The notes beneath the pieces were generated by a model that was not told the origin of the DNA, ran no database searches, and worked only from the letters and a program-made list of their open reading frames with translations. A stretch of DNA of 64,000 nucleotides from Planctomycetaceae bacterium (GTDB lineage Bacteria > Planctomycetota > Planctomycetia > Pirellulales > UBA1268), in NCBI GenBank assembly GCA_947449135.1, contig CANFQO010000008.1, forward strand, positions 2,129-66,128, in the 5' to 3' direction. Positions 34,783 to 63,111 of this stretch are shown one piece after another; the first letter of the stretch is position 1; each line of letters opens with the position of its first letter. The translations under genes and the position numbers were made by a program.

Positions 34783-35934
34783 TCAATAGCCGGCCGTGGC
34801 GAGGCTTGCGATGGCTTCGTCGGCCATCGATCCCAGACGCGGGAATACGGAGTTGTTGTCCTTGCAGTCGACGAATTCACTGAGCCACTGGACGGACCCG
34901 TCGACCATCGCGAAGAAGCAACCGCCGGCATGCTGGCTGCCCGGAGACTCGAAAAAGATGTTGTTCATGCCGCCGGGATTGGAATGACCCGGGTCGGTCG
35001 CCGTGACGAAGAGCGTGGCCACTCCCCCCACGGCCCAGCCATCCTGGCTGGTGCGGTTGTAGGTTTTGGCGGCGCTGGTTGCCCCGGCGACCGGCCGAAG
35101 TCGCTGCAACTCGCCCAGCATGATCGTGTTGGTCAGGCCGTCGATGACGGACGCCAGCGGCCGGCCTTTGTTTGGGAAAAACAGGCCCTGACGGCGCCCG
35201 TTGGAGCCGACGACGGGAGTGTTGATGTCGGTGAAGCGGTGATCCAGACTCGTGTCGTTCATGAAGCCGTCGAGGCGGCCGTAGCAGCCGCCATAATCGG
35301 TGCCGCCGCCCCTCCAGTTCGCGTTGACCAGGTTTTTATGGTCATCGCGATCGATACGGATGCCGGAACGGCGGGTAGGGCAATAGAGCGAGGGGATGTC
35401 GGCTTGGGCCACGGCGGCATTGCCCAGCACGTTGGTGGAGTGGTCCCAGAGATTCGCGAGATGCGCCTGTTCCATGAACGGCAAGACCGGCAGGATCCAG
35501 CTCGACCCGTGCTTGGTACCCGACATGAACGACGTCAGTCGGGCCTCGGCCCAGGGGTTCCAGCAGCCGGTGCACGTCGTCGGATTGGTCGCCTCGCTGA
35601 CTTCAGCCGCAGCCGGGAGCCGGCCACTACAGGATTCGTAGTTCAGCAACGCCACGGCCAGCTGCCGCAGGTTGTTTTGGCATGCCGTTCGTCGAGCCGA
35701 CTCCCGCGCTGCCTGCACGGCTGGCAGCAGGAGGGCGAGCAGGATCGCGATGATTGCCACCACGACGACGAGTTCGACGAGACTGAAACCGCCCCGAAAC
35801 GCCTGAATCGCAGGGCTGCACCGTTGCTGCCACGGGCATGGCGAGAGCGGCTGAAATTCCCTGGTGATCGTGCTCCATCCGTGCCAACTGCTGATCGACC
35901 TCTCCCTGAGTCGACCCGTCCGTGCCTGAACCAC
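34783..35934 (-). CDS. DUF1559 (H-X9-DG) protein with a prepilin-type N-terminal cleavage/methylation domain
   Basis: GFSLVELVVVVAIIAILLALLLPAVQAARESARRTACQNNLRQL. GTG start at 35934 gives an unusually long leader, so the start is uncertain. Confidence 0.85.
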   Translation of the reverse strand: MVQARTGRLRERSISSWHGWSTITREFQPLSPCPWQQRCSPAIQAFRGGFSLVELVVVVAIIAILLALLLPAVQAARESARRTACQNNLRQLAVALLNYESCSGRLPAAAEVSEATNPTTCTGCWNPWAEARLTSFMSGTKHGSSWILPVLPFMEQAHLANLWDHSTNVLGNAAVAQADIPSLYCPTRRSGIRIDRDDHKNLVNANWRGGGTDYGGCYGRLDGFMNDTSLDHRFTDINTPVVGSNGRRQGLFFPNKGRPLASVIDGLTNTIMLGELQRLRPVAGATSAAKTYNRTSQDGWAVGGVATLFVTATDPGHSNPGGMNNIFFESPGSQHAGGCFFAMVDGSVQWLSEFVDCKDNNSVFPRLGSMADEAIASLATAGY

Positions 35935-49583: not shown

Positions 49584-52500
49584 TTGGTGGCACAGGTTGG
49601 CCCCCGCTACCATCCCCGGATGGTGCGCCCACTGCCACAATCCGTTTTGCGATCGTCCTGCCGCAGCCGCGGGCTGGTCTGGCTGCTGCTCGCCACGGTC
49701 GTGCTGTCGGCCAACTGGGCGATGGTGCCGGCTGCCGCCCAGGATGCCGGACTCGTCGAACGCCCGGTCACCATCCGCGTGACCTGGGGCGGCGGGAAGG
49801 CCCACGCCTGGTCGGGTTCGATCCGGGTGGTTCCGGCTGAAGCTGAGGCGAAGGCCGCTCCTCCTGACCTTCAGTGGCAGACGCTCTGTACCGACCCCGA
49901 TGCGGCCGCCACCGTCCACGCGGTTGGCAGCACGATCTTCGTGCACGAACCGAGCCGCCGCGGCGGCAACGGGATCGAGCTGGTGATCCCGCGCTGGCGA
50001 GGATCGCGGATCGCCGTAGGACTGGTGGCCGACGGCGACGAGCGGACTGCCTCGACATTCGAGGTCTCCGTCGCCGATCTGCTGGTGGAGGCCCAGCAGC
50101 AGCCGCTCGATCGCGACGGCAACCGCCTCGCCCTGAAGCCTGCCCCCGGAGATGCGCTCCGTGTGGAATGCTCCGTGCCCGCAGCGGTCGCCGGCAGCGT
50201 ACCTGTCCCCACGACGATGTTTCGCCCGGGGGAGATCGTCCGCGTCGCCGTCGATCCGCTCCTGCCGAAGCGGTCGCCTGGATCAGGTGCGGTCGAGCTC
50301 CGCATGCGGCTCAAGGCTGCAGTCGACGCCGAGCCAACGGCTGCCCAATCACTGCTGCTCGTGGAGGCCGGCGGGGCGGCTGCCGCGTCGCCAGCTGAGC
50401 CACGCTTGCAGCGCTACGAGCAGGTCCATTTCGACATCCCTCTATCGGCTCGCGAAGGGGTTTACGACATCGAACTCGAGGCTGTCGAGCGGGGCGGCCT
50501 GCGCTGGTCCCGGCCACTTGCCACGCGGACGGTGCAGTTGTTGGCTGTTTCCGATGTCGACCCCGATGTCACCGCAACGGCATCAGACACCGGCTGGAAG
50601 GTGATCCACGAGCTCGACCCGGGCAGTCCACGGCTGCACGAACGGCTCCGCCGACTGCCGGGCGTTGGCAAATCCTATGTGCCGATGCCGGCCATGCCGA
50701 TGCCTTCGATGTCCATGCCGTCGATGGCACTGCCGAACGTTGCTCTGCCCAACGTGCCCATGCCGAATGTGTCCATACCCAGCATGCCGATGCCGAAGCT
50801 GCCGATCCCAGCGGTGTCTCTGCCGTCGGTGTCGTCGGTGTCGTCGATGGTGCCCCGGCTGAGCGGTCTGCTGGCTGCGGGGCACTCCACCCTGGAGGTG
50901 CACGCCCTGGGGCCGATGCTGCGACTGCCACCGGCGCGATCGGCTGACGAGCCAGCGTGGGAAGGTATCGTGATCGCCGGAGCGCAGCCGGGACTGCCAC
51001 ATCTTGTGGAGGTGGAGTTTCCACTTGATCAGCGGGCGGTCGTGGGCGTGACCGTGCTGGAGGCCGACGCGGCAGAGGCGTCAGTCGAGGTCCGTTCGAG
51101 CGGCGGGTTCGAAGTGACTCCCCCCGTCGCCGCCACCACGAGCACGGGACCGACAGAGCTCGGCCGACACAGCTTTGTGTTTTGGCCGACTACCCGAAAT
51201 CCGCTCGTTGTGATCGCCAATCCATCGCCCCACGCCCCGGCGGTCTTTGGCCGGGTGCGAGTGTCAGCCGGTCCGCTGCGGCCGCCGGCCAAAGCAGCCG
51301 CCGGCGCAGACCGCAGTCTCACCGCAGCGGCTGGTCGCGGCCGACGTGTGCATGCCTATGTGCCCACTCCAGACTTTTCCCAGTTCGGTGCCTTTGAGCG
51401 ACCGGCCAGCGGTGCCGGTCGGCCGTTTGCAGACTGGAAAACGTTTCTCTCCGGGGCGTCGCATGCGGCGGAATGGTTTTCAGCGCAGGGTGCCGCGGGG
51501 GCGATGGTGGTCGTCTACCGCGAGGGCGCTGCCACCTGGCCGTCGCGGCTGACGCGGGGTGCTCCGCGTTGGGACAGCGGTGCCACGTCTGATGCAGGGC
51601 TCGATCCCGTTCGCAAGGATCTGCTCGGCATGCTCTGCCGCCTCCACGCCCGCGAGGGGCTGCGGCTCCTGCCGGCGGTTTCGTTCGATGCACCGCTCCC
51701 GGCCGTTGAGGCGATGCTTCGTGTCGGCGGCGCTGAGGCGACCGGCATCGCCTCCGTGGGCCGCGATGGGAAGCCGCGGCAGATCGAAGGTGGCCGGGGC
51801 TGTCATTACAACGTGCTCGATCCACGGGTCCAGCAGGCCGTGGAGGATGTCGTGCGAGAACTGGCGGGACGGCTCCAGGGGGCCGAGGCCGTCGATGGCT
51901 TGGCACTGGTGCTGCCGCACGACGGCTGGATGCATCTGCCCGGCACGGCCTGGGGTCTCGACGACGCCACCTTCTCCCGATTCCTCGCTGAGGTGGGTGG
52001 CCAGGAGCCGGCGACGGGTGGTGAGCGGTTTGCCCGGCGGGCGGCGCTTGTCGAAGGCCCGCTGCGGGAGCAGTGGCTGGAGTGGCGGGCGGAGTCGATG
52101 GCACGGTTCCATTCCCGACTGGCAGCCGTGTTGGCAGAGCATGAGCCACGGTGGAGCCTGCACGTGGTGCCCACGTCGCTCTTTGCCGAGGGAGAACTGG
52201 CGTCGCGATTCCGTCCCTCACTGGCCGCAGAGCCTGCCGACGCCGATCTGCTGCGCGAGATTGGGCTTGTTCCCTCGCGAATCACCGCCGATCGGCGGAT
52301 CGTGTTCGTGTCGCCGCACGTCCATGCTGCAGCTGACGCGCTCCTCGACCGCTGCATCGTGGACAATGCCAACCGCTCTCTGCCCGTGGCCCGGGGCGTT
52401 GCCTGCGCGGCCCGCCGGGGAGTGATCGCGATCGAGCAGTCGCTCCCGTTGCCAATCGATCACATCGTGCCGCATGGACCGTTCGGCGGCGTGGCTGCAG

Positions 52501-53813
52501 CGGCTGACGTGGCGGCCATTCACGCGGTGGCCGAGGGGCCGGCGCGAGGCAGGTCTCTCGCGGAATCGCTCGTGACGTCGGATGTGGAGGTGGTGTTCGA
52601 TATGGGGCTCCTCTACGGTCGTGTCGAGCCGACTTTCGATCGCTGCCTGCAGGCCTTCGCCGCGCTGCCTGCGGGAGGGCTCGAACTGGCCGAGTCGCTG
52701 GCCGCACCGCTCGTGGTCCGCAGTCGGCGTGACGAGGGGCGGACCATCGTGAGTGTCGCGAATGCGGGACCGGCCCCTTGTCGGGCCGGGCTCGCGCTCG
52801 CAGGCTCGCCTTCTGCGGTCGTGGACGCCGTCGATGGCACGCGGCTGCCGCTCGATCCATCGGGGGGCGCGACCGTGCCGCTGCGGCCCTGGGAGATCCG
52901 CACACTCGTGCTCGATGGCGGTGTGTCAGTGCGGGGATCGCGGGTGGAATTCGACGACGATGTGCGGACTGCGATCGCCGCGCGACTGGCCGACCTGAAT
53001 CGCCGTCGTGCCGTGCTCGAGACACCGCGGCCACTCGACGTGCTCGACAATCCGGGGTTCGAGTTGGCCGGTCCGGGGGGCGCCGCCGCCGATGCGGGCG
53101 ACCGTGCCCCGGGCGGCGGGGTGGGAGGCTGGGAGCTCGTGGAGGCGAGTCGCGGCAAGGTCAGCTTTGTGCCTGGCGTCAATGGTGCGGCTGGCCGCGG
53201 GATCGGTTTCTCTTCGGTGAACGGACTGTCGACCGTGCGGAGCAATCCGTTTCCGCCACCCGCGACTGGCCGTGTGAGCGTGGCCGTGTGGCTTCGCATC
53301 GCCGAGGGGGATCCACAGCCGCCGCTACGACTGGCGCTCGAGGGCATGCAGGAGGGCAGCGAGTATTACCGGTTTGCCCCGGTGGGCGGGCTGGCGGGCG
53401 GCAAGCCGCTCACACCAGGCTGGTCGCAGTTCGTTCTCCAGGTCGACGACCTGCCGGCCCACGGTCTGGAGTCGTTGCGGGTGCGGTTCGACCTGTTGGG
53501 GCCTGGCACCGTGGAGATCGACGGCGTGCGAGTCTTCGATCTGGCCTTCGACGAATCGCAACGAGTGCAACTGTCGCGGCGGCTCTCGTTGATGGAACAG
53601 CGGCTGGTGGCCAACGATCTGGGCTCATGCCTCGTCGAACTCGACACGTATTGGCCGCGGTTCCTCACGGAATTCGTCACGGACGACGCGGTAGCCGCGA
53701 TGGCAGTGGTGCGTGATGATGCTCTGCGAGGCATGGAAAGCCCGGTGCAGCCGGCCCCGTCCACCGAACGCTCGGGCAGCATGTTCGACCGGGTGCGACG
53801 CTGGTGGCAGTAG
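49584..53813 (+). CDS. Very large secreted protein with a GH-like TIM-barrel region and a C-terminal CBM4/9-like domain
   Basis: Signal peptide (LVWLLLATVVLSANWAMVPAAAQ). The mid-region resembles glycoside-hydrolase-like family 10/DUF187 (CHYNVLDPRVQQAVEDVV...LVLPHDGWMHLPG). The C-terminal NPGFEL...GGWELVEA... is jelly-roll-like. Confidence 0.65.
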   Translation: MVAQVGPRYHPRMVRPLPQSVLRSSCRSRGLVWLLLATVVLSANWAMVPAAAQDAGLVERPVTIRVTWGGGKAHAWSGSIRVVPAEAEAKAAPPDLQWQTLCTDPDAAATVHAVGSTIFVHEPSRRGGNGIELVIPRWRGSRIAVGLVADGDERTASTFEVSVADLLVEAQQQPLDRDGNRLALKPAPGDALRVECSVPAAVAGSVPVPTTMFRPGEIVRVAVDPLLPKRSPGSGAVELRMRLKAAVDAEPTAAQSLLLVEAGGAAAASPAEPRLQRYEQVHFDIPLSAREGVYDIELEAVERGGLRWSRPLATRTVQLLAVSDVDPDVTATASDTGWKVIHELDPGSPRLHERLRRLPGVGKSYVPMPAMPMPSMSMPSMALPNVALPNVPMPNVSIPSMPMPKLPIPAVSLPSVSSVSSMVPRLSGLLAAGHSTLEVHALGPMLRLPPARSADEPAWEGIVIAGAQPGLPHLVEVEFPLDQRAVVGVTVLEADAAEASVEVRSSGGFEVTPPVAATTSTGPTELGRHSFVFWPTTRNPLVVIANPSPHAPAVFGRVRVSAGPLRPPAKAAAGADRSLTAAAGRGRRVHAYVPTPDFSQFGAFERPASGAGRPFADWKTFLSGASHAAEWFSAQGAAGAMVVVYREGAATWPSRLTRGAPRWDSGATSDAGLDPVRKDLLGMLCRLHAREGLRLLPAVSFDAPLPAVEAMLRVGGAEATGIASVGRDGKPRQIEGGRGCHYNVLDPRVQQAVEDVVRELAGRLQGAEAVDGLALVLPHDGWMHLPGTAWGLDDATFSRFLAEVGGQEPATGGERFARRAALVEGPLREQWLEWRAESMARFHSRLAAVLAEHEPRWSLHVVPTSLFAEGELASRFRPSLAAEPADADLLREIGLVPSRITADRRIVFVSPHVHAAADALLDRCIVDNANRSLPVARGVACAARRGVIAIEQSLPLPIDHIVPHGPFGGVAAAADVAAIHAVAEGPARGRSLAESLVTSDVEVVFDMGLLYGRVEPTFDRCLQAFAALPAGGLELAESLAAPLVVRSRRDEGRTIVSVANAGPAPCRAGLALAGSPSAVVDAVDGTRLPLDPSGGATVPLRPWEIRTLVLDGGVSVRGSRVEFDDDVRTAIAARLADLNRRRAVLETPRPLDVLDNPGFELAGPGGAAADAGDRAPGGGVGGWELVEASRGKVSFVPGVNGAAGRGIGFSSVNGLSTVRSNPFPPPATGRVSVAVWLRIAEGDPQPPLRLALEGMQEGSEYYRFAPVGGLAGGKPLTPGWSQFVLQVDDLPAHGLESLRVRFDLLGPGTVEIDGVRVFDLAFDESQRVQLSRRLSLMEQRLVANDLGSCLVELDTYWPRFLTEFVTDDAVAAMAVVRDDALRGMESPVQPAPSTERSGSMFDRVRRWWQ
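50685..50860 (+). repeat. In-frame array of about 10 pentapeptide units (hydrophobic-P-x-hydrophobic-x) inside the 1409-aa protein
   Basis: MPAMP MPSMS MPSMA LPNVA LPNVP MPNVS IPSMP MPKLP IPAVS LPSVS. Confidence 0.85.
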
Positions 53814-53859: not shown

Positions 53860-55107
53860 TCAATGCGGCACGAATGTATGCCGCACCGTTACCTGCCGCA
53901 CCTCGCGGCTTGATGGTTCATAGCAGCGGATGCGAATCTCGATCCCGCGGAGCGGAACCGAGTAGGGGGGGCGAGTATCCCGCTCGGCGTCATCGTCCAC
54001 GACACCGTCGGCGTTGTTGTCGATCCCGTCCGTTCCGCCGTCCACTACGGTGTCGTTATTCTCGTCGATGCCATTGCACTCGTAATGCGTGCTCCACGTA
54101 TCGTAGATGCGTGTCAGTTTCGAAAGGGTTGTGGCAGAGCCTGTGAGCGTAGTCGAGGCGGCGCCCGAGCCGAGATCGACATAACAGCCCAGGCCCGCCG
54201 GACTGGGCGTTGTGGCTCCCGCATAGCCCGGATCCCCGGGCACCAGTCCCACGCTGTTCCCTGACACGGCACGGATCGCCGCCGCCGGATCGAACACACG
54301 CACATCGAACGCCAGCACATTCCGTAGCACGATCTCCTCACCCTGCCGGGAACCCGAGAGAACAGCGGCGCCGCTCGACAGATTCCCCGCCGTGCCGGCA
54401 TAGGGGAACGACCCGCTGCTGACCGTGCCCGCTGGATTGTGGGCGAACCGGTTTTCCCGCTTGGTGAGATCACCGAGGGTATTCGGCAGGAACTCGGTGC
54501 CCTCCACCCGGAGCGAGAGATCGTAGGACTGCAGAACCGAAAACGTCGCCGCGGGAAGCACGCCAAACGACGCGACCGCAAGCCGGTTGGACCTGCTCGC
54601 AAACGCCCCCGCGCCAACGTAATCGAGAACGAGCAACTGCCGTCGGTAGAGATCGTAGAGCGTCATCCCGGCCGTGGTGACGCTGGAGGGACGGCAGAAC
54701 CAGGCCACCTCCGCTGTCCGCGATTCGATGGACGACGTGCCGGAAAAGAGTCCCACGTAGGGCCGGTCGAGCGTGCTGGTGGTGAACAGCAGAGCATCGT
54801 CACAGTCGCCGATCAGTTGCGACGTACCGAGCGACGTGTCGTTGGCGGAACCCTCGATGATCTCGAGGTATCCGGCGTCGGCATCGGCAGCCACCGGTGG
54901 AACCGTCGGGGCGGTGGCGCCAGCCAGATCGATCCGCAGGGCGTGTGAAATGGCCCGCAGTTGTGCCGACGTGATGAGCGAGGCGCGGCTGCGGGAGATG
55001 CTGTTGCCCAGAATGCCGAACAGCTGAGCGATGACACCCATGATGATCAGCGTGAGCGTCGTCGCCACGAGCATTTCCACCAACGTCATGCCGCGACGCA
55101 CGCTCAT
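53860..55107 (-). CDS. Enlarged minor pseudopilin, GspJ/PilW-like
   Basis: Prepilin motif RRG|MTLVEMLVATTLTLIIMGVIA. Asp-rich Ca-type loops GIDENNDTVVDGGTDGIDNNADGVVDDD. C-terminal LRGIEIRIRCYE... Confidence 0.75.
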   Translation of the reverse strand: MSVRRGMTLVEMLVATTLTLIIMGVIAQLFGILGNSISRSRASLITSAQLRAISHALRIDLAGATAPTVPPVAADADAGYLEIIEGSANDTSLGTSQLIGDCDDALLFTTSTLDRPYVGLFSGTSSIESRTAEVAWFCRPSSVTTAGMTLYDLYRRQLLVLDYVGAGAFASRSNRLAVASFGVLPAATFSVLQSYDLSLRVEGTEFLPNTLGDLTKRENRFAHNPAGTVSSGSFPYAGTAGNLSSGAAVLSGSRQGEEIVLRNVLAFDVRVFDPAAAIRAVSGNSVGLVPGDPGYAGATTPSPAGLGCYVDLGSGAASTTLTGSATTLSKLTRIYDTWSTHYECNGIDENNDTVVDGGTDGIDNNADGVVDDDAERDTRPPYSVPLRGIEIRIRCYEPSSREVRQVTVRHTFVPH

Positions 55108-58100
55108 TCGATGATCCTCCGCAAGAGGATCGCATCACGCACATTGTGGTTGCGGCCGCGTTCGTAGGCGACGGGAATCGAGCGGTCGAAGATGTAGAAG
55201 CCGCGATTGCGTTCGACGGGCGTCATCTCGAGGGTGCCGGCGGCGTCGCTGAAGTAGCCAATCGTCACCCAGACCGCAAACACGTTGGACCGGACGGTCA
55301 CCACTCCCGACAGCTGGTTCATCGTCTGGTAGCGGAAGGAGGCGTGGCGGTCGGTGTTGCGGTGGTTGTTGAGGTCGAGCGAGCCGTTGCCATTGCCGTC
55401 TTCGGAGGCGTCGAGCGAGCCATTGCCGTTGGCGTCTTCGCTGACGAACGCGTCACGGTAGCCACCACTGCGGCTGGGGGAGGAGAGCTGGGAGCTTCCG
55501 GCGGCAGGCATGGTCAGGAACAGATCGCCAGGGCTTTGCAGGACCGATTTCCCCAACTGATCCTTGTCCCACCGCGGCAATGCGTCGAAGAAGTTTGGGG
55601 CCACCACGTCGGCATCGCCCTGGGCTTTTAGGCCGCCAAACAGCGCCCGCCAGGTGCGGGCATCGGTGATCGTGTTGACGTTCACACGCCCCGGCTCCCG
55701 GTAGTCGGAGAGCTGATTGAGAGGCATGACATCGAGGCCGAGTTTGGCCAGGCCGCCGCGGTTGGCCTGCTGGGTGGCAGTGGCGGTGCCGGAGAACACT
55801 GTGTTGTAGATCCCCGCAAACGGCGACGGCACATGAAGAAAATCGAAGAGTGACGCCGCGTTCGTGGCCGACCTACCGGTGACAGCGTCCCATGGCGCCG
55901 GCGGCGTTGCATCCTCGAAGAATCCCGGCAGGTGATTGAAGGGAGAAGTGGGGGCGGGGGAGCCGGCGACGGAGTGCGACTGCAGCAGTTCCGTAGGCGA
56001 GCCCACCGGCACAAGGGCCAGTTCATACACGGTGTTAAACGGCCTGTTCAAGAAGCAGAGCCAGGGGAATCTGGGAGTGGAGGTCTCCGATCCACCGTTG
56101 GCGTAGAAGCGGCTGGGAAGCCCGGTCAGCGGGTTGCCGTTGGAATCCCGAGTAAACTCCCTGAGGGTGCTCTTCAATTCGTCGGCAGTCGTGCCAAATC
56201 CAGGGGCCGCGTTGAGTTGTTTGGTTGGGGTCGTAATCAGAGGGGTGGCAGACCGCACGGGTGACGAGTTGGAGGCGGTCATGACGAGCGAGGGTGCAGG
56301 GTTCCCATCGGCCCGCACGCGACCACTCCAGATGTCGTATTCGGGGGTTGCTGCCGCAGGAGGATCGGTCCATTTGCCGCCCCGCTCGGCCGATCGAAAC
56401 CGATAGTTCCGCTGGCTGGCAAATGAAGGGTCGTCCACGTTGGCCTGCGTGTAGCCCGCGGGCGGATTGGAGACAGCGTTGTTGGTGGCATTCATCGTGT
56501 TGATGACGGTCAGGTCGACCGTCATCGAATCGACGGTGATGTAGGGGTTTGCGGAGCTGTTGTAGGCGATGGTGGGATTGGCCAGTCGCTGCAGGTGCAC
56601 AACGGCAAAATTGTCGTGCGTGCCGTTGAGCATCAGGAGCGGTGTGGCTGCCGACGTCGTGCCGGTGCCCTTGATGAAGAACTGCGGGCTGACGGTCGTG
56701 CTGCCATTGAGAAAGTAGCCGTCGAGCGGCGTGTCGACTGCGTGCTGCAGCGAAATGGGGTTCTTGCTGTCGTCATACCAATGAGGTTCTGCATTGAAAT
56801 CGGGTGTGAACTTGTTGTTGGATCCATAGGCAAGTTTGGCGACGACCTCGTAGGGCTCCGATCCGTCGAAAGCCGTCGGCTCAGAGAGCGTCGGGGCGGT
56901 GCGGCCCGAGGTGCTGGCGGACGCATTGAAACGGAGCGGCACCTTGTTGATGTAGGCCAGTTCCATTCCCTGGGAGGGATTGGCTGCCGGCTGATCGTAG
57001 AAGTAGCCGTCGGAACTCTTTCCGCTGCCCTTCGGATTGGGCTGCGTGTCGTGGAAGTCGAAAATCAGGTTCTCGGGACCTGCCACGACATACTGCGACT
57101 GCGATGGTTCGACAGTGGCCGCCATCGTGGTCCAGTAGACACCGGCCATGCCGGTGCCGGAGATGACCTGCAATGCTGCCGGAGGTGGAGCAAAATAGAA
57201 GGCACGGTCGATCTTGGCGGTGGAGTTCGCCGCGGCGGGATCGACAAACTTGCCTTGGGCGTCAAACCCCGTGCCCCCTTCAACGTTCCCACGGACGGAT
57301 ACCAGTCGCCAGACCGGCGTCTTGTCGGAGGTGGGGGTCGTCAACGACAGGCTGATCGTCGTGTTTGTCGAGAACGAACTGGTGCCGCCAACGATGAGTT
57401 CGCTCGGCGTTGGTTCACCGCGGGCGGTTCCCGATGGCGAGAGCGTGACGTTTCCAACCGTGCCGCTGACAAGCTGCTTTGCCTGTGATTGCCACGGGGA
57501 GTAGAGCTCGATGAAAAAGGCACCCCACGGACGACGTGATTGATCCAGGTCGTTATCTGGATTGCTGGAAGCAGTGATCTTATTACCCTCGCTCAGGTCG
57601 TCCGTCCGCCGATTGTGCCATGCCAGGGTCTCCGTGATGAGAAGTTCCGGCCGTTCACACCCCCAGACAAAATCACCCGAGCCAGGTGACCATGTCGTGC
57701 TGGCAGGGCCAAAGTTTGCGTCGAAAAAAAACTGCGTCATCACCGAGTCTTCGTCGCGGAAGTCGACGACATTGACCGCATACTGGGCAATTTTTCGGGC
57801 ATCGCTGGCCGAGAGCGTCCCGCTGTTGTTGGCTCGGACGATCGACACCATCAGGCAGTAGAGCTGACGGGCGAAGATCTGCCGACGTCCCAGCGGGGCA
57901 GTGGCATTGTTGCCGGTGGCGTCGTTGGGTTCGGTGGTCAGCGTGTCGTGGAACGGCCGATTGATATCCATCCGGTGCCCCAGCAGCACCTCGGGAGCGA
58001 AGAGGTCCTGCGGGCGATTGCTGCCGGTGCCGGTGATAGAGGTGCTGATGAAACTGGCGAAGGTGCCTCCCACGACGGTTTTCCAGCGGGTGCCGGGGAT

Positions 58101-59885
58101 TACCGGCGTGTCCCAGCTCTCGGTGGTGAGTGCCAGCCGATTCCGGCTGGCATTGGTGCCGCTGAGAACGACGAGCCGGCGGCCGAGCCGGAGCGAGTCG
58201 GGATCGAAATACCGCAGCAGCCCCTCCAGATCGGCGGGCGTCAGCAGGTTGTCTTCGGGCGTAGCGGCGCCGGTGGGAGTTGCCGAATAGCCCGTCCGGG
58301 CGCCGCGACGGGTCAGATTCACCTCGTAGGGGTCGTCGACGACATCGTTGAACCCGCTGGCTTGGTACCAGACCGGTTTGTAGTAGACCGGCTGCCCGAA
58401 GCCGTCCACCCACACCCGCATGGTGCCGTGGAGATCCCCGGGTGCTCCAAATCGCCCAGGCGAGACGAAGTAATTGAAGGCCCGGTCTTTGTCGGTGCCG
58501 GAGGTGACGAGCGAGGCCCGCCACTGGTCGAAAAATGCCCCTGGATAGTCGTTGCTGCCGACGACACCCGGCTGTGTCGGCAGCGAGACCGCCGTCGACC
58601 CGTTCCAGCTCGTCGTGTCCCAGACGGCGTCACCATGGCGGCCTTCCACGCTGCCAACACGCGGGGTTTCCCTGCCGGTGAGAGGATCAGTTTCTACGGT
58701 CGACAACGGCATTCTGCCAGCGGTGAACCGGGTCGCCTGCTGCAGCATCGTAGACGTGCTCGTCGTCCCTGAGCCGGTCGGATCAAAGGCCAGTCCCCTC
58801 ATGAGACTCACTCCCGCCGGGCCGCCCGGCGCACCCCGGGGCAATTGCTCAAGCGTCACGGTATCGGGCGAACTGGATCCCGAGGTCAGCGTCGGATACT
58901 GGTTGAGGTTTTCGGCGTCGACATTCGAGCCGTGAGCGTTGACATTCATGCGACCGTCGAGGTCGACGACAAGCACCGCCGCCCGGGGATAGACCATGCG
59001 TCCAAACGAGTCGACGAGAGGAGGGAGTCCGATATCCAGAAACCGGCTGTCGGCCACGCCGTCTCCATCGTTGTCGATCGAGACCGGGGACGTTCCTGAG
59101 TACAACGGTGCGGGCGTTACGGTGGGGAGCGTGCCGGACAGAATGCGAGTCAGCAGTGGATTGCGGGTATCGAAGCCGTCCCAGGGCTCGTTCGTGTCGC
59201 TGCTCGTCGCTGGATCACCGCTGAACTCCCGCCCATTGATGACCAGCGTCGGCTGCGTTCCGGAAACGGCGGCCACCGCTCCGGCCAGCACCGACTGCGA
59301 CAGTGCTTGGCCGGCCACCGTGGGACCCGCCGCGATGATGACTGTCGGCGCCGTGGTGGAACCGCTGGCCTGCAGGATGCGGGTGCTCGTGCATAGCCCC
59401 GGCAGCAGCAGCGTGAGCACGCGGCCATTCAAATCAGAGACGTTCGTTGGCAGCGACGAACTGCCCGTGGTGGTGGCACCCAGGCCGGCCGTGGTGAGCT
59501 GAATCAGCGAGTTGGTCGTCCCGCTGCCGGTGGCGACCAACGACGCTCCGGTAATGCGGCCTGTGATCGCTGAGTTGTGCCCGTATTTGTCACCGAGAAG
59601 ATCCTCTCCGCTCGCCAGGGCCGTGCCGCTCGTCAGCGTGGCCGTCGTGCCGCGGGCGACGGCCATGAACGCCGCATCGACCAGTTGGATTTCACCCATG
59701 CCTGCGGCGGTGTCGGTGACGGCGTTGTTGGCGAACGCGCGGGCCGACTTGTGAGCCCGCGTGGCAATGCTGAGGTAGGCCACCCCGAGCATCAGGAACA
59801 GCGTGAGCACACTCAGCACTACCAAGAGCAGCACGCCCCGACGGCGCCGTCCGCTGCGGCACCACCCGCATCTCAGGGAGTCCAT
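55104..59885 (-). CDS. Giant GspK-like minor pseudopilin (1593 aa)
   Basis: GspK-style N-terminus RRRRGVLLLVVLSVLTLFLMLGVAYL with no Glu5. VVDLDGRMNVNAHG and EPGRVNVNTITDARTWRALFGGL (GspK xNxN / helix-hairpin-helix-like motifs). DxDxDG loops (IDNDGDGVADS, DANGNGSLDASEDGNGNGSLD). ATGA overlap with the J-like gene. Confidence 0.7.
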   Translation of the reverse strand: MDSLRCGWCRSGRRRRGVLLLVVLSVLTLFLMLGVAYLSIATRAHKSARAFANNAVTDTAAGMGEIQLVDAAFMAVARGTTATLTSGTALASGEDLLGDKYGHNSAITGRITGASLVATGSGTTNSLIQLTTAGLGATTTGSSSLPTNVSDLNGRVLTLLLPGLCTSTRILQASGSTTAPTVIIAAGPTVAGQALSQSVLAGAVAAVSGTQPTLVINGREFSGDPATSSDTNEPWDGFDTRNPLLTRILSGTLPTVTPAPLYSGTSPVSIDNDGDGVADSRFLDIGLPPLVDSFGRMVYPRAAVLVVDLDGRMNVNAHGSNVDAENLNQYPTLTSGSSSPDTVTLEQLPRGAPGGPAGVSLMRGLAFDPTGSGTTSTSTMLQQATRFTAGRMPLSTVETDPLTGRETPRVGSVEGRHGDAVWDTTSWNGSTAVSLPTQPGVVGSNDYPGAFFDQWRASLVTSGTDKDRAFNYFVSPGRFGAPGDLHGTMRVWVDGFGQPVYYKPVWYQASGFNDVVDDPYEVNLTRRGARTGYSATPTGAATPEDNLLTPADLEGLLRYFDPDSLRLGRRLVVLSGTNASRNRLALTTESWDTPVIPGTRWKTVVGGTFASFISTSITGTGSNRPQDLFAPEVLLGHRMDINRPFHDTLTTEPNDATGNNATAPLGRRQIFARQLYCLMVSIVRANNSGTLSASDARKIAQYAVNVVDFRDEDSVMTQFFFDANFGPASTTWSPGSGDFVWGCERPELLITETLAWHNRRTDDLSEGNKITASSNPDNDLDQSRRPWGAFFIELYSPWQSQAKQLVSGTVGNVTLSPSGTARGEPTPSELIVGGTSSFSTNTTISLSLTTPTSDKTPVWRLVSVRGNVEGGTGFDAQGKFVDPAAANSTAKIDRAFYFAPPPAALQVISGTGMAGVYWTTMAATVEPSQSQYVVAGPENLIFDFHDTQPNPKGSGKSSDGYFYDQPAANPSQGMELAYINKVPLRFNASASTSGRTAPTLSEPTAFDGSEPYEVVAKLAYGSNNKFTPDFNAEPHWYDDSKNPISLQHAVDTPLDGYFLNGSTTVSPQFFIKGTGTTSAATPLLMLNGTHDNFAVVHLQRLANPTIAYNSSANPYITVDSMTVDLTVINTMNATNNAVSNPPAGYTQANVDDPSFASQRNYRFRSAERGGKWTDPPAAATPEYDIWSGRVRADGNPAPSLVMTASNSSPVRSATPLITTPTKQLNAAPGFGTTADELKSTLREFTRDSNGNPLTGLPSRFYANGGSETSTPRFPWLCFLNRPFNTVYELALVPVGSPTELLQSHSVAGSPAPTSPFNHLPGFFEDATPPAPWDAVTGRSATNAASLFDFLHVPSPFAGIYNTVFSGTATATQQANRGGLAKLGLDVMPLNQLSDYREPGRVNVNTITDARTWRALFGGLKAQGDADVVAPNFFDALPRWDKDQLGKSVLQSPGDLFLTMPAAGSSQLSSPSRSGGYRDAFVSEDANGNGSLDASEDGNGNGSLDLNNHRNTDRHASFRYQTMNQLSGVVTVRSNVFAVWVTIGYFSDAAGTLEMTPVERNRGFYIFDRSIPVAYERGRNHNVRDAILLRRIIE

Positions 59886-60763
59886 GGGGAGTTCCTTTCG
59901 AGCGTCACAAAATTCTCGGCATACCCGATCGCTCCCTGCACCAGATGCACCCTGTTGGCCGCATTGGAAACGTCATGGTCAAACGAAAATCTCGCGCTTG
60001 TCACCAGGCCCCCAGATACCAGCGGCGCCGCCAGCACCAGCCGCCGCCATTCCCACGTCGTCGCCCCGTCGGAGATGAGCACGACAGCTCCCACTGGGCT
60101 GAAGTCCCGGAATGTATCCGTCGCCACACCCGGAGTGAACGTGGCGGTGGCCGTGGCGGGCGAGAACGTGCCTGCCAGCGGGGCAACGGCGGCGGTTCCG
60201 GTGCCACGGCGGTTGCAGACAACGACGGAGAGGCGAAAAAATTGTGGCAACGCATCGGTCGTCGCGGGCACGAGCGTGGCCAGCCAGGAGAAATTCCCCT
60301 TGCTCGCCCGCTTGCCGGCCGCTGTGTCGAACCTCGGAACAGGCGGATCGTCATTGGATTGCACGGCCTCATAGACAGGGTCGTCCTGCGACCGGAAGAC
60401 CTCATCGGCTGCCACGGTGCCGGCACCAAAATTCCCGATGGTGACTGCGGTCAGCCCCGTGCTGGGACTGGCGTTGGCAAGACCGTTGTTTCCCAGCGGA
60501 TCAACGATGATGGCATGTCGGTTCGATGACGCCGGGGCCGGGGTCCAGGTGGCTGGGTTCAAGATGCCGCGGGTGATTGCATCGGCCTTTGCAGCGGCCG
60601 CCACAGCGGCCCGGCGGTCATCGTCCATCGCCTTCTTCGCCTCGGAGGCACCTGCGGGAAGGAGTGCCACGACACAGGCCAGCCCGATCGAAAGAATGCC
60701 GAGCGACACCAGCACTTCAAGCAGCGTGATGCCGCGGCGATGGCTGGCGACATGGGCGGTCAT
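59873..60763 (-). CDS. Enlarged minor pseudopilin, GspI-like
   Basis: Prepilin motif HRRG|ITLLEVLVSLGILSIGLACVVALLP. 13-nt overlap with the K-like gene. Confidence 0.7.
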   Translation of the reverse strand: MTAHVASHRRGITLLEVLVSLGILSIGLACVVALLPAGASEAKKAMDDDRRAAVAAAAKADAITRGILNPATWTPAPASSNRHAIIVDPLGNNGLANASPSTGLTAVTIGNFGAGTVAADEVFRSQDDPVYEAVQSNDDPPVPRFDTAAGKRASKGNFSWLATLVPATTDALPQFFRLSVVVCNRRGTGTAAVAPLAGTFSPATATATFTPGVATDTFRDFSPVGAVVLISDGATTWEWRRLVLAAPLVSGGLVTSARFSFDHDVSNAANRVHLVQGAIGYAENFVTLERNSPWTP

Positions 60764-60785
60764 GAGGCTTCACTGGCAACGGGAA

Positions 60786-61754
60786 TCAGATGCCCCGCAA
60801 TGCCTTCACGACGAATGCCTGCGAGTCCCCGATCGTCGAGGCATTTGCCGGGATTTCGATAACCTTCACCATCGACGTGCGAGGATCAACAAGAACCCAT
60901 CGAGCCTGCGGGTTCTGCCAGTTTACCCCCGGGTCATCGGCGGTGGTACTGGTGGCATAGGCTGCGCCCACCTGGGAGCGAAGCCCCACGAGGAGGGCTA
61001 CCGGTGTGATCGGAGGGAGGAGCGTGCGCACCCACGCTGAGGTGGTGGCCAGTTGCCGCCAGGCGGCCAGAGGCCGACCGCAGCGATCAAACTCGATCGC
61101 GACGGTTGTGGCATCGCCCATGCCGGTGACAACCGGGGAAAACCCGTATACGCCGATGGTCGAACACGACAGATCGATGCACGTGTCGTCGTTCAGGAAA
61201 CCAACGGACGCCGACGCGCGGCGCTGTGGCGGCAGCCGCAACGTATAGGGGATCGACATGCCCTTGGACGGGAAGGCGAGGTTGGCGGCATTGCGGTTTG
61301 TCCCCGCGTCGGCGAGTTCGATCCTGCTGGTGGTTTGGGCGGTGAAGACCGTGGGAATGCCGGCGAACTCAATCGGAGCGGGAAGAACGTCGGCGGAGCA
61401 GGCGAGTGTCACGACCGCGTTGCCTGAGCCGGGTTGGGAATCAACGATCGTGGAACCGGCAACACCCGATCGCGGGCGGCCGGTCCGTAACGCCACGATG
61501 GCCTGTCCCGCACCGGACCCGGATGTCTCCGCCTCATACCAGGCAGCAGCCCCGTTCCGCGAACCGATCGCTCGGGAAGCCTGTTGGCCTAAATGCACCG
61601 AAACCGCTTCGGCGGCATCGACCAGTCGTCTCTTTCCGGAACGACCGTTGAGCACAGGCAACACGACCACCGAGAGCAGGCCGAGGATCACCACCACCAC
61701 CAGCAACTCGGCCAGAGTCATGCCGCGACGCAGCGAGCCGGAATGGTAGTTCAT
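60786..61754 (-). CDS. Enlarged minor pseudopilin, GspH-like
   Basis: ATG 61754 gives MNYHSGSLRRG|MTLAELLVVVVILGLLSVVVLPV. Confidence 0.7.
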   Translation of the reverse strand: MNYHSGSLRRGMTLAELLVVVVILGLLSVVVLPVLNGRSGKRRLVDAAEAVSVHLGQQASRAIGSRNGAAAWYEAETSGSGAGQAIVALRTGRPRSGVAGSTIVDSQPGSGNAVVTLACSADVLPAPIEFAGIPTVFTAQTTSRIELADAGTNRNAANLAFPSKGMSIPYTLRLPPQRRASASVGFLNDDTCIDLSCSTIGVYGFSPVVTGMGDATTVAIEFDRCGRPLAAWRQLATTSAWVRTLLPPITPVALLVGLRSQVGAAYATSTTADDPGVNWQNPQARWVLVDPRTSMVKVIEIPANASTIGDSQAFVVKALRGI

Positions 61755-61761
61755 GGTGTGA

Positions 61762-62748
61762 CTACCTCGTGAGAAGGTCGTGGTTTGTGATGTTGTCTCG
61801 ATATGCGTCGAGGTTGGCAGGATCGGGGGCTCCCACCAACACGGGTGTCTTCGAGTCTGTGCGCGATGGCGCGTAGGTGCAGGGGGAACTGCCGTTGGCC
61901 ACGCCAAGAGACGCAGTCGGCCAACCGGTCTCCGCCACGCTGACCAGCCCATAGCCGCTGGCTGAACCTGACAGGGGGTCGTTCAGGGACTCGTCGGGGC
62001 CCGGCGAAAAAATCAGCGGGAACAAAGCGAATGCCGTGGCATCGACGTTGTTGGGATCGATGGGGTCGTGCGACGTGACGGCATTCTGCTCCTGCAGCGG
62101 GGAGGAAAAACCGGGCGCCCAGCGGATGAACGAGATCGGCCGCTTCCAGCCGTCCCAAAATTCAAGTTTGCCGTCCTGATCAATGTCGCCGATTCGATCC
62201 GCCCGGATGTGCTCAAGAAAATCGGGAAACATCCCCGACTGGGTGATGATCATGTAGAGGCACTCGGCACCGGCGTAGGCCGACGACGGAGTGGTGGACG
62301 TCTTCTTGTATTCGGCATAGCACTGGCCTGCCGGCGTCAGCGCCGTCGCCGATGAGTCTGGTACGTCCTCCCAGGAATCTGGCATCTCCTCGCGAATGCG
62401 GGCGCGGAGCGACGCCAGCTGCGCGGGGGTGGTCGGGTTCATCTGGACCGCCAGATCCTCGTATTGCTCCCACCGATCCAGAAGGGCGTCGTTGAGTTTC
62501 TGGATGATGAACTTGGTGGTGTCGCGGCGGCTGGCGCGGGCCGCGTTGCGCATGCCGCCAAGCATGAGGCCCGACAGGATCGCCAGAATGCAGGTGACCA
62601 CCACCAATTCAATCAGTGTGAATCCAGCCGACCGAGCCCTGCCGATGCTGGGAAACGCCGCTGCCGGGCGGCCCGCGTTGCGGGCCTCGAACATCGTCGA
62701 AGGCAGACGCAGGGCGGCGATTTTTTTTACGGATGCAGTGGCTTTCAT
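61762..62748 (-). CDS. Enlarged major-pseudopilin-like protein (GspG-like)
   Basis: GAGGAG lies 5 nt upstream of ATG 62748. Prepilin motif SAG|FTLIELVVVTCILAILSG. GspG-like DIDQDGKLEFWDGWKRPISF and terminal DNITNHDL. Confidence 0.75.
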   Translation of the reverse strand: MKATASVKKIAALRLPSTMFEARNAGRPAAAFPSIGRARSAGFTLIELVVVTCILAILSGLMLGGMRNAARASRRDTTKFIIQKLNDALLDRWEQYEDLAVQMNPTTPAQLASLRARIREEMPDSWEDVPDSSATALTPAGQCYAEYKKTSTTPSSAYAGAECLYMIITQSGMFPDFLEHIRADRIGDIDQDGKLEFWDGWKRPISFIRWAPGFSSPLQEQNAVTSHDPIDPNNVDATAFALFPLIFSPGPDESLNDPLSGSASGYGLVSVAETGWPTASLGVANGSSPCTYAPSRTDSKTPVLVGAPDPANLDAYRDNITNHDLLTR

Positions 62749-62825
62749 GCCCGCTCCTCGCAGCATTTCTTGCTGCGTGTCCTCTCGCTGCGTTTCCTCT
62801 AAATTGACTCTACGCTCGTGTTACC

Positions 62826-62839
62826 GCATTCCCTATGCC
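62826..62839 (-). promoter_or_regulatory. Candidate sigma54 (-24/-12) promoter for the pseudopilin operon
   Basis: The minus strand reads GGCAT-AGGGA-ATGC (consensus TGGCAC-N5-TTGC) with GG and GC at the correct 12-nt register, about 80 nt upstream of ATG 62748. Confidence 0.3.
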
Positions 62840-63111
62840 CCGGCGGTGGGGCTATCCAATTATTCGTTTCAGAAACAGATGGTGAGTAGCTTCTGGCTCG
62901 TAGAGACGCGAGGAAGTCCCGTTCGCTCTTCAGAACGCATTACGAAGCCGGGCACAAAAAGGTTCATTTTTTTGCTGACCGGCCTGTCGCGCCGCTGAGA
63001 CAGTTGGGAACGCAGCAGGCTCAACGCAGCTTTTTGGCCTGCCGCGGAGCGAAATGGAGATCGACGGCATGCCTGATTGGATGAATCGTCAGGCAACGCG
63101 CGCGACTTCAG

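Follow-up and report, generated by a model that had tools for sequence, protein, structure and literature searches.

A five-gene prepilin cassette found behind type IV filament motor genes in planctomycetes and detached from them in one clade

Five tightly packed minus-strand genes, here called g, h, i, K and J, occupy positions 53860-62748 of a 64,000-nucleotide (nt) stretch of contig CANFQO010000008.1 from a Planctomycetaceae bacterium (assembly GCA_947449135.1); this whole stretch is referred to as the window. The original prediction, made from the sequence alone, had described them as a stand-alone operon of enlarged pseudopilins. Comparison with related genomes indicates that the cassette is a regular component of a locus conserved among planctomycetes, itself unannotated and uncharacterised, in which it directly follows genes for motor ATPases and a GspF/PilC platform. 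Its detachment is a quirk of the window's lineage. With a probability of about 0.7, we read the five genes as a set of minor pilins that primes and tips a fibre, with g possibly serving as the shaft subunit. The set would belong to a type IV filament machine specific to planctomycetes, whose motor has been split off here. In the best-supported reading, this machine combines a pseudopilin composition like that of the type II secretion system (T2SS) with PilB and PilT motors like those of the type IV pilus (T4P).

Position of the cassette in related genomes

Relatives of K are present in 452 species-level genomes, and the 80 best K loci among them (L001 and so on) were compared. All but two carry planctomycete labels, the others being an 'uncultured bacterium' and a Kuenenia-labelled contig. 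Genes upstream of the cassette were counted in the 45 loci with at least 7 kilobases (kb) of flank upstream of the giant gene, and GspF was found there in 44. Where the flank allows, the upstream set reads PilB/GspE-like ATPase, PilT-family ATPase, second PilB/GspE-like ATPase and GspF/PilC. The first PilB/GspE-like ATPase has ~560-650 amino acids (aa), and the second PilB/GspE-like ATPase has 572 aa and carries the MshEN motif that binds cyclic di-GMP (c-di-GMP). The PilT-family ATPase scored 463 bits against a cut-off of 319; PilB, at 617-640 bits, fell just under its equivalog cut-off of 675.65, as did GspF/PilC under its own. On two long contigs, T2SSE, MshEN-T2SSE, T2SSF, prepilin genes, the giant gene and further genes follow one another, and BLAST found counterparts of all five window proteins there in the same order. 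The PilT-family ATPase places the machine nearer to the type IV pilus than to the T2SS.

The same five families in the same order were found in L003, L005, L061, L087, L089, L093 and others. The arrangement is far beyond chance, because it recurs in dozens of other genomes; the original picture of a stand-alone system is not borne out. Profile searches of the 80 loci gave full-length homologues of g in 53 (after GspF), of h in 56, of i in 58 and of J in 14 only. The i homologue always lies directly before the giant gene or before J. The order of K before J, noted originally as unlike the classical one, holds in the window and most members and is not fixed, since J precedes K in L031 and seven loci end with K. 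Most loci have an extra G-like prepilin gene between GspF and g. In L014, L021, L048, L061 and L089, g is the sole G-like gene after GspF, and L061 and L089 read F-g-h-i-K-J, exactly the set of the window with no other pilin gene between.

As an observation on the motor itself, both PilB/GspE-like ATPases of L061 (3861-5576 and 415-2364) have MshEN N-terminal domains. In one of them the c-di-GMP motif exceeds the cut-off (47 bits against 38), which suggests control by c-di-GMP.

In the window, as first noticed, the cassette stands apart from any motor or secretin: no T2SSE or T2SSF (ATPase, platform), secretin or prepilin peptidase was found by Pfam among the 30 main coding open reading frames (ORFs) outside the cassette. 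The same five genes, again with no motor genes nearby, are present in L003 (84% identical), L084, L085 and one more contig, at 83-95% identity to the window. All four share the downstream synteny of the window, which consists of a convergent gene of ~1400 aa, a POT transporter gene and a TIM-barrel gene. The detached cassette was seen only in the window's clade; beyond it, one lone paralogue (L034) lies away from the motor. The split is specific to this clade, because the nearest outgroup, L087 (K identity 56-58%), keeps GspF directly upstream. From the lack of a motor beside the cassette in the window and in the four further contigs, it follows that the motor is encoded elsewhere.

The ratio of nonsynonymous to synonymous substitution rates (Ka/Ks), measured against the 84%-identical orthologues of L003, was 0.14-0.24 for all five genes. 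Therefore, the genes are functional and under purifying selection. A decaying remnant left after the loss of motor genes could be suspected from the absence of such genes from the 64-kb window. Yet all five reading frames are intact, including one of 4.8 kb without a stop, and the layout is kept in the four further contigs. With these Ka/Ks values and this conservation, decay is hardly credible and was rejected.

The paralogue in L034 (8399-14104) encodes a K-like protein of 1901 aa with no prepilin or motor genes nearby, and the same metagenome-assembled genome (MAG) contains the canonical locus L066. Bacteria with several minor-pilin/PilY1 clusters work by alternative tips. The window cassette could accordingly be a second, alternative tip or minor-pilin set, with the primary copy beside the motor elsewhere and different tips placed on one fibre. 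The two K-like genes of that MAG, as well as the strong variation of K length and variable regions between lineages, would fit such a scheme. The gene in L034 is, however, a lone K-like gene and not a five-gene set, and the detached layout is stable across the four further contigs. Moreover, the cassettes of the window's clade match best the canonical cassettes of the nearest outgroups (K of L087, and K of L005 at 47% identity), and no second, closer set was present among the homology matches. An alternative tip set is thus unlikely.

Properties of the five proteins

The coordinates agree with the packing described originally: from g to J, neighbouring genes are first separated by 7 and 22 nt and then overlap by 13 and 4 nt. 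Gene g (61762-62748) encodes a GspG-like prepilin of 328 aa when read from the ATG at 62748. An alternative start lies six codons earlier, and the ORF from this first ATG (61762-62766) gives 334 aa. Gene h (60786-61754) encodes a GspH/FimU-like prepilin of 322 aa. Its longest ORF (60786-61952) would give 388 aa, and the start was taken at 61754 because the 322-aa form aligns end to end with its orthologues. Gene i (59873-60763) encodes a GspI/PilV-like prepilin of 296 aa, K (55104-59885) a giant of 1593 aa, and J (53860-55107) a GspJ/PilW-like prepilin of 415 aa. The size contrast with classical pseudopilins is real, since the Gsp proteins of E. coli K-12 were checked to be of 125-327 aa (GspG 145, GspH 169, GspI 125, GspJ 195 and GspK 327 aa).

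By their sequences, g, h, i and J carry the class III signal peptide typical of type IV filament prepilins, namely a short basic leader, Gly at -1, a hydrophobic helix and Glu at +5 (Pfam N_methyl / TIGR02532). Scores with N_methyl were 23.4, 21.8, 25.8 and 21.7 bits for g, h, i and J respectively, all above the gathering cut-off of 21.2 bits. With the cleavage site marked by a slash, the N-termini read SAG/FTLIELVVV in g (motif G/FTLIE), RRG/MTLAELLVV in h (G/MTLAE), RRG/ITLLEVLVS in i (G/ITLLEVLVSLGILSIGL) and RRG/MTLVEMLVA in J (G/MTLVE). The four cleavage and methylation motifs that had been noted originally were thereby recovered by the family model.

The names G, H, I, K and J, tentatively assigned in the original prediction, draw on the helix at the N-terminus, on gene order and on a small number of motifs; the cut-off of no Gsp or Pil family was reached and the labels are used here as analogies. 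Against the GspG model TIGR01710, g scored 25.7 bits (cut-off 88.85), and T2SSG of Pfam matched 0 of 19 g-family members. Alignment of g with E. coli GspG by hhalign had a probability of 96%, limited to 52 N-terminal columns. The g family alignment A2 keeps the motifs EIGDxDGDG, DGWGRPI and SAGPDG in this order. Against the GspH model TIGR01708, h scored 23.4 bits (cut-off 80), while its hhalign probability with E. coli GspH was 95% over 68 columns that run from the helix into the first strand. For i, the scores were 19.3 bits with GspI (TIGR01707, cut-off 44.35) and 22.5 bits with PilV (TIGR02523, cut-off 52.2). T2SSJ of Pfam matched 0 of 58 J-family members. The NCBIfam matches to GspG, GspH, GspI, PilV and GspJ were all confined to N-terminal segments and far below the cut-offs, and Pfam scans of whole families of cassette proteins returned N_methyl only. 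PDB profile searches with the g, h, i and J families gave N-terminal pilin helices or nothing (helices only for h, no match for i).

Homologues of J number more than 1762, and some of them are named PulJ or PulG by JGI. Its acidic loop, DEGTNGxDDNxNGVVDD, is conserved. The AlphaFold model of J (predicted local distance difference test, pLDDT, 69; predicted template modelling score, pTM, 0.72) contains a 54-residue helix (9-62), after which come beta sheets. In this model J appears to have a pilin-like layout of a long N-terminal helix and a beta sheet.

The fifth protein, K, begins with RRRRG/VLLLVVLSVL, with Gly at -1, a hydrophobic helix and no Glu at +5. This agrees with the GspK-type N-terminus first proposed for it, as RRG/VLLLVVL of K corresponds to QRG/VALLIVL of E. 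coli GspK. Its placement is also that of a GspK, since i and J flank it in the window and it follows i or J in relatives. No recorded protein was identical to K of the window. The body of K gave no Pfam, NCBIfam or PDB sequence match, either for K or for 21 members of its family, and a PDB profile search with the family gave 0 matches. By eye, K resembles GspK in the motif RGVxLLxVL, in a pair of 'xNxN' motifs and in a C-terminal strand with S-x-x-F; this likeness received no support from hhalign and is at most a lead.

The K family comprises 2228 representatives at 50% identity (E <= 1e-3), 888 of them with E <= 1e-30. More than 399 homologues of 1450-1800 aa are named 'hypothetical protein' or are unnamed, without a Pfam domain, and functional annotation was absent from all family members checked. 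The length of K ranges from 1157 to more than 2000 aa between lineages. Two motifs are invariant, D271-N-D-x-D-G-xx-D279 and D308-x-D-G-R-x-N-x-N-x-H318. The acidic loops of K (DNDxDGxxD) and of J resemble DxDxDG calcium sites, and, judged by these motifs, the DxDxDG-type loops of K probably bind calcium.

The last 1,200 residues of K (394-1593) were modelled with AlphaFold. The model has a confident core at ~594-1343 (~750 residues) with many 10-residue blocks at pLDDT 80-93, and this core is predicted to be helical and then beta-rich. In Foldseek it gave no match at E <= 0.001 in PDB or BFVD.

Three observations concern individual loci of the K family. The K-like proteins of L089 (14464-17937), L090 and L091 are naturally short, with 1157-1159 aa, in loci that read F-g-h-i-K-J-DUF1559. 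In the long-read assemblies L001 (10001-15050 and 15047-16382) and L002 (14923-16174), a K-like or J-like gene is broken into 2-3 ORFs, which are probably assembly frameshifts and not pseudogenes. L006 (CAMDFJ010000069.1), from a MAG labelled 'Candidatus Kuenenia stuttgartiensis', carries i, K (41% identity) and J of the kind found in Pirellulales-type loci and is probably mis-binned.

Comparison with Planctopirus limnophila and with known systems

In Planctopirus limnophila, Plim_0410-0401 is among the largest putative operons; genes labelled 'Type II secretion' come first in it, and after them come six for Planctomycetes-only proteins that have no assigned function (PMC10632474). Plim_0410, 0409, 0408 and 0407 are named GspE, twitching motility protein, GspE and T2SS protein respectively (PMC10632474). 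By transposon sequencing, every gene of the operon was essential except Plim_0409, for which the result was unclear (PMC10632474, supplementary tables). Since Plim_0401 is the last gene and the next one, Plim_0400, is non-essential (PMC10632474), the essentiality of Plim_0401 is not a polar effect.

Gene lengths were solved from the published insertion indices, which are insertions divided by gene length minus one (PMC10632474). Plim_0401 had the unique solution of 4,800 bp, or 1,599 aa. Lengths of 565, 370, 570 and 419 aa were obtained for Plim_0410, 0409, 0408 and 0407, and of 352, 370, 360 and 468 aa for Plim_0406, 0405, 0404 and 0403. Gene order and sizes match those of the canonical loci, and on these grounds it is very probable that Plim_0410-0401 is orthologous to the canonical locus. 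Through this correspondence the cassette may be linked to essentiality. Two differences are evident. In P. limnophila the genes are contiguous with the motor, whereas the window cassette is detached, and six downstream genes with the giant last stand in place of the five of the window. No further paper mentioning the Plim_0410-0401 genes was found in the library searched.

It is unusual for pili or a T2SS to be essential, and planctomycetes encode very many prepilin-like proteins, including 68 DUF1559 paralogues in P. limnophila (PMC10632474). It could therefore be argued that the cassette proteins are not fibre subunits and use the prepilin signal for membrane insertion and processing only, acting as periplasmic or surface proteins anchored in the inner membrane, for instance as envelope-building or substrate-binding factors. 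A possible parallel exists with the many abundant planctomycete DUF1559 proteins, and the globular parts of the cassette proteins have no detectable similarity to pilin families. Against such a role stand the strict linkage to PilB/PilT/GspF genes in 44 of 45 loci and the GspG-K-like composition of four Glu5 prepilins and one without Glu5. The N-terminal helices of h and g also align with those of GspH and GspG, and the 54-residue N-terminal helix of the J model is typical of assembled pilins. A role apart from filaments is thus quite improbable, and the priming and tip module is retained as the preferred explanation.

The cassette was also compared with three known systems. With the T2SS (E. 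coli gsp operon), it shares five consecutive genes after gspE/gspF, four G/xTLxE N-termini, one large member with Gly at -1 and without Glu5, and the helices of g and h that align to GspG and GspH. Unlike the T2SS proteins, those of the cassette are 2-5 times larger, reach no family threshold with hidden Markov models (HMMs) and have no structural match. In addition, the canonical planctomycete locus has a PilT-family ATPase and two PilB/GspE-like ATPases, most members have the order K-J instead of the classical J-K, and the operon of P. limnophila that appears to correspond to it is essential. The defining T2SS components GspD and GspC/L/M were absent from the window and from the 10 kb around the loci in L001, L002, L089 and L093.

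The type IVa pilus (FimU-PilV-PilW-PilX-PilE and PilY1) likewise has a minor pilin set with one very large protein. The ATPases of its motor, PilB-like and PilT-like, and its PilC-like platform resemble those encoded in the loci of relatives, which are absent from the window. The acidic DxDxDG-type loops of the cassette proteins recall the calcium sites of PilY1. PilY1, unlike K, has no pilin-like helix of its own at the N-terminus. Neither the window nor the genes listed for L001, L002, L089 and L093 included a PilY1 (Neisseria_PilC), vWA or PilMNOPQ gene.

The Verru_Chthon cassette A-D (TIGR02600, TIGR02598, TIGR02599, TIGR02596) is similarly a prepilin-type cassette of the Planctomycetes-Verrucomicrobia-Chlamydiae (PVC) superphylum. 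Weak N-terminal matches to its proteins D, B and C were given by h, i and J (E 0.006-0.04), at 16.7, 15.5 and 13.1 bits against cut-offs of 70, 51.4 and 256.5 respectively. Protein A (TIGR02600), which may be very large, matched 0 of 21 K-family members. No relation to this cassette was detected with HMMs, and no paper mentioning it was found.

Proposed role of the cassette

In the proposed mechanism, a prepilin peptidase encoded elsewhere would cut the four Glu5 prepilins (g, h, i and J) behind their conserved Gly, and the cleaved proteins would stay in the inner membrane by way of a hydrophobic N-terminal helix. K would keep its GspK-style helix without Glu5. By analogy with GspH-I-J-K and FimU-PilVWX, a complex of i, J and K may prime fibre assembly on the GspF/PilC platform and stay at the tip, with h joining this complex to the shaft. 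The shaft subunit may be g or another G-like pilin, or the two may form the shaft together. A PilB/GspE-type ATPase would power extension and a PilT-type ATPase could power retraction. The ~1,270 residues of K beyond the size of a classical GspK would form a large tip structure, with a fold without known match and with DxDxDG-type loops that may bind calcium. In the lineage of the window, the module would have been separated from the motor genes and would be transcribed alone. The prepilin N-termini, the conservation of the five families, their position behind the motor genes of relatives and the purifying selection are observed; the tip or priming role, the identity of the shaft protein, calcium binding and the link to essentiality are inferred.

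Several results weigh against this explanation. In the HMM searches and whole-family Pfam scans, none of the five proteins reached a Gsp or Pil family threshold past the N-terminal helix. By hhalign, i aligned with E. coli GspI at 32% probability over 18 columns and J with GspJ at 7%, neither of them significant, and K with GspK at 10% (N-terminus only) and at 0.07% with the C-terminal profile. The best PDB match of the J model in Foldseek had E 0.46, none reaching E <= 0.001, and the PDB miss of the K model counts in the same way. Because the J and K models match no solved pseudopilin, a pilin fold of their globular parts is not demonstrated by modelling. In K, the C-terminal 250 residues, where the GspK-like sheet would be expected, were modelled at low confidence, and the N-terminal 393 residues lie outside the model. 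In the seven loci whose operon ends with K, no adjacent J gene was found, and no secretin, PilMNOP, GspC/L/M or prepilin peptidase gene was present within 10 kb in L001, L002, L089 and L093. Plim_0401-0406 are likened to the cassette by order and size, not by sequence, and P. limnophila is absent from the 80 loci compared. Finally, the motor genes of the organism itself were not found: a search with GspF, which is too conserved for this purpose, gave 6,868 matches (E <= 1e-100), of which the best 120 were all at least 85% identical and the two examined were canonical loci.

The tip and shaft of a fibre with a motor encoded elsewhere, as originally suggested, thus stands for the pilin-like genes and for the location of the motor, and pilin folds past the N-terminal helix were not recovered. 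HMM and structure searches yielded N_methyl in four proteins and a pilin-like layout of J, and no Gsp/Pil family or Foldseek match. The alternative that the cassette would prove to be a well-annotated standard pilus component holds in one half: it is standard in a conserved locus, and that locus carries no annotation.

The region between the cassette and the next gene upstream (62749-63111, minus strand) is 363 nt long and is the presumed site of the promoter, although a consensus scan found no sigma-70-type promoter in it. The upstream gene (63112 to past 64000, minus strand) encodes a DUF1559 / H-X9-DG protein and runs off the end of the window. This neighbour, pointed out in the original prediction, is present in the window and is not conserved, as HIT and DUF1501 genes take its place upstream of the cassette in the closest relatives. 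The rest of the window consists of housekeeping genes (YidC, MnmE, UvrD, LpxC, aconitase and others) and one further DUF1559 gene by Pfam. The latter (34783-35934, minus strand) is a complete prepilin-like gene of 383 aa with N_methyl and SBP_bac_10, 18 kb from the cassette. In several distinct lineages of relatives, the J-like gene has a DUF1559 / H-X9-DG prepilin-like gene as its immediate downstream neighbour: L001 (16689-17693), L002 (16405-17484), L087 (10253-11296), L089 (19400-20431) and L093 (20316 onward). The filament machine might carry DUF1559 proteins as cargo or include them as subunits. The convergent ORF next to the cassette (49584-53813, plus strand) encodes 1409 aa, and its synteny with the cassette is kept in L003, L084 and L085 (1386-1429 aa). 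It belongs to no Pfam family (a weak GHL10 hint, E 0.1) and contains the Met/Pro-rich repeat MPAMPMPSMSMPSMALPNV.

The gene-order observation is in itself modest. The families that it exposes are large, unannotated past the prepilin N-terminus, structurally unmatched and probably essential. Five protein families are now defined that Pfam and NCBIfam recognise at the prepilin N-terminus at most and that travel with the PilB-PilT-PilB-GspF motor across the phylum, and the ~750-residue confidently modelled core of K has no structural relatives. The detached arrangement shows that transcription of the putative tip module need not be coupled to that of the motor. If the correspondence with Plim_0410-0401 is true, the 'Planctomycetes-only essential hypotheticals' would gain names and a testable role in filament priming or tipping.

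Planctomycetes have unusual envelopes, crateriform pits and fibres with unidentified molecular parts (PMC5394234), and fibres of 12 nm and 6 nm were described by Boedeker et al. to arise from crateriform structures (PMC5394234). A connection of these fibres to the cassette system is speculation. As a tentative extension, which we think rather doubtful, K and its partners may cap a retractable, planctomycete-specific type IV filament that is essential for growth, perhaps the crateriform fibre or a device that places essential envelope or DUF1559 proteins. If this were true, a type IV filament machine would belong to the core essential cell biology of planctomycetes, and the fold of its tip protein would be entirely new.

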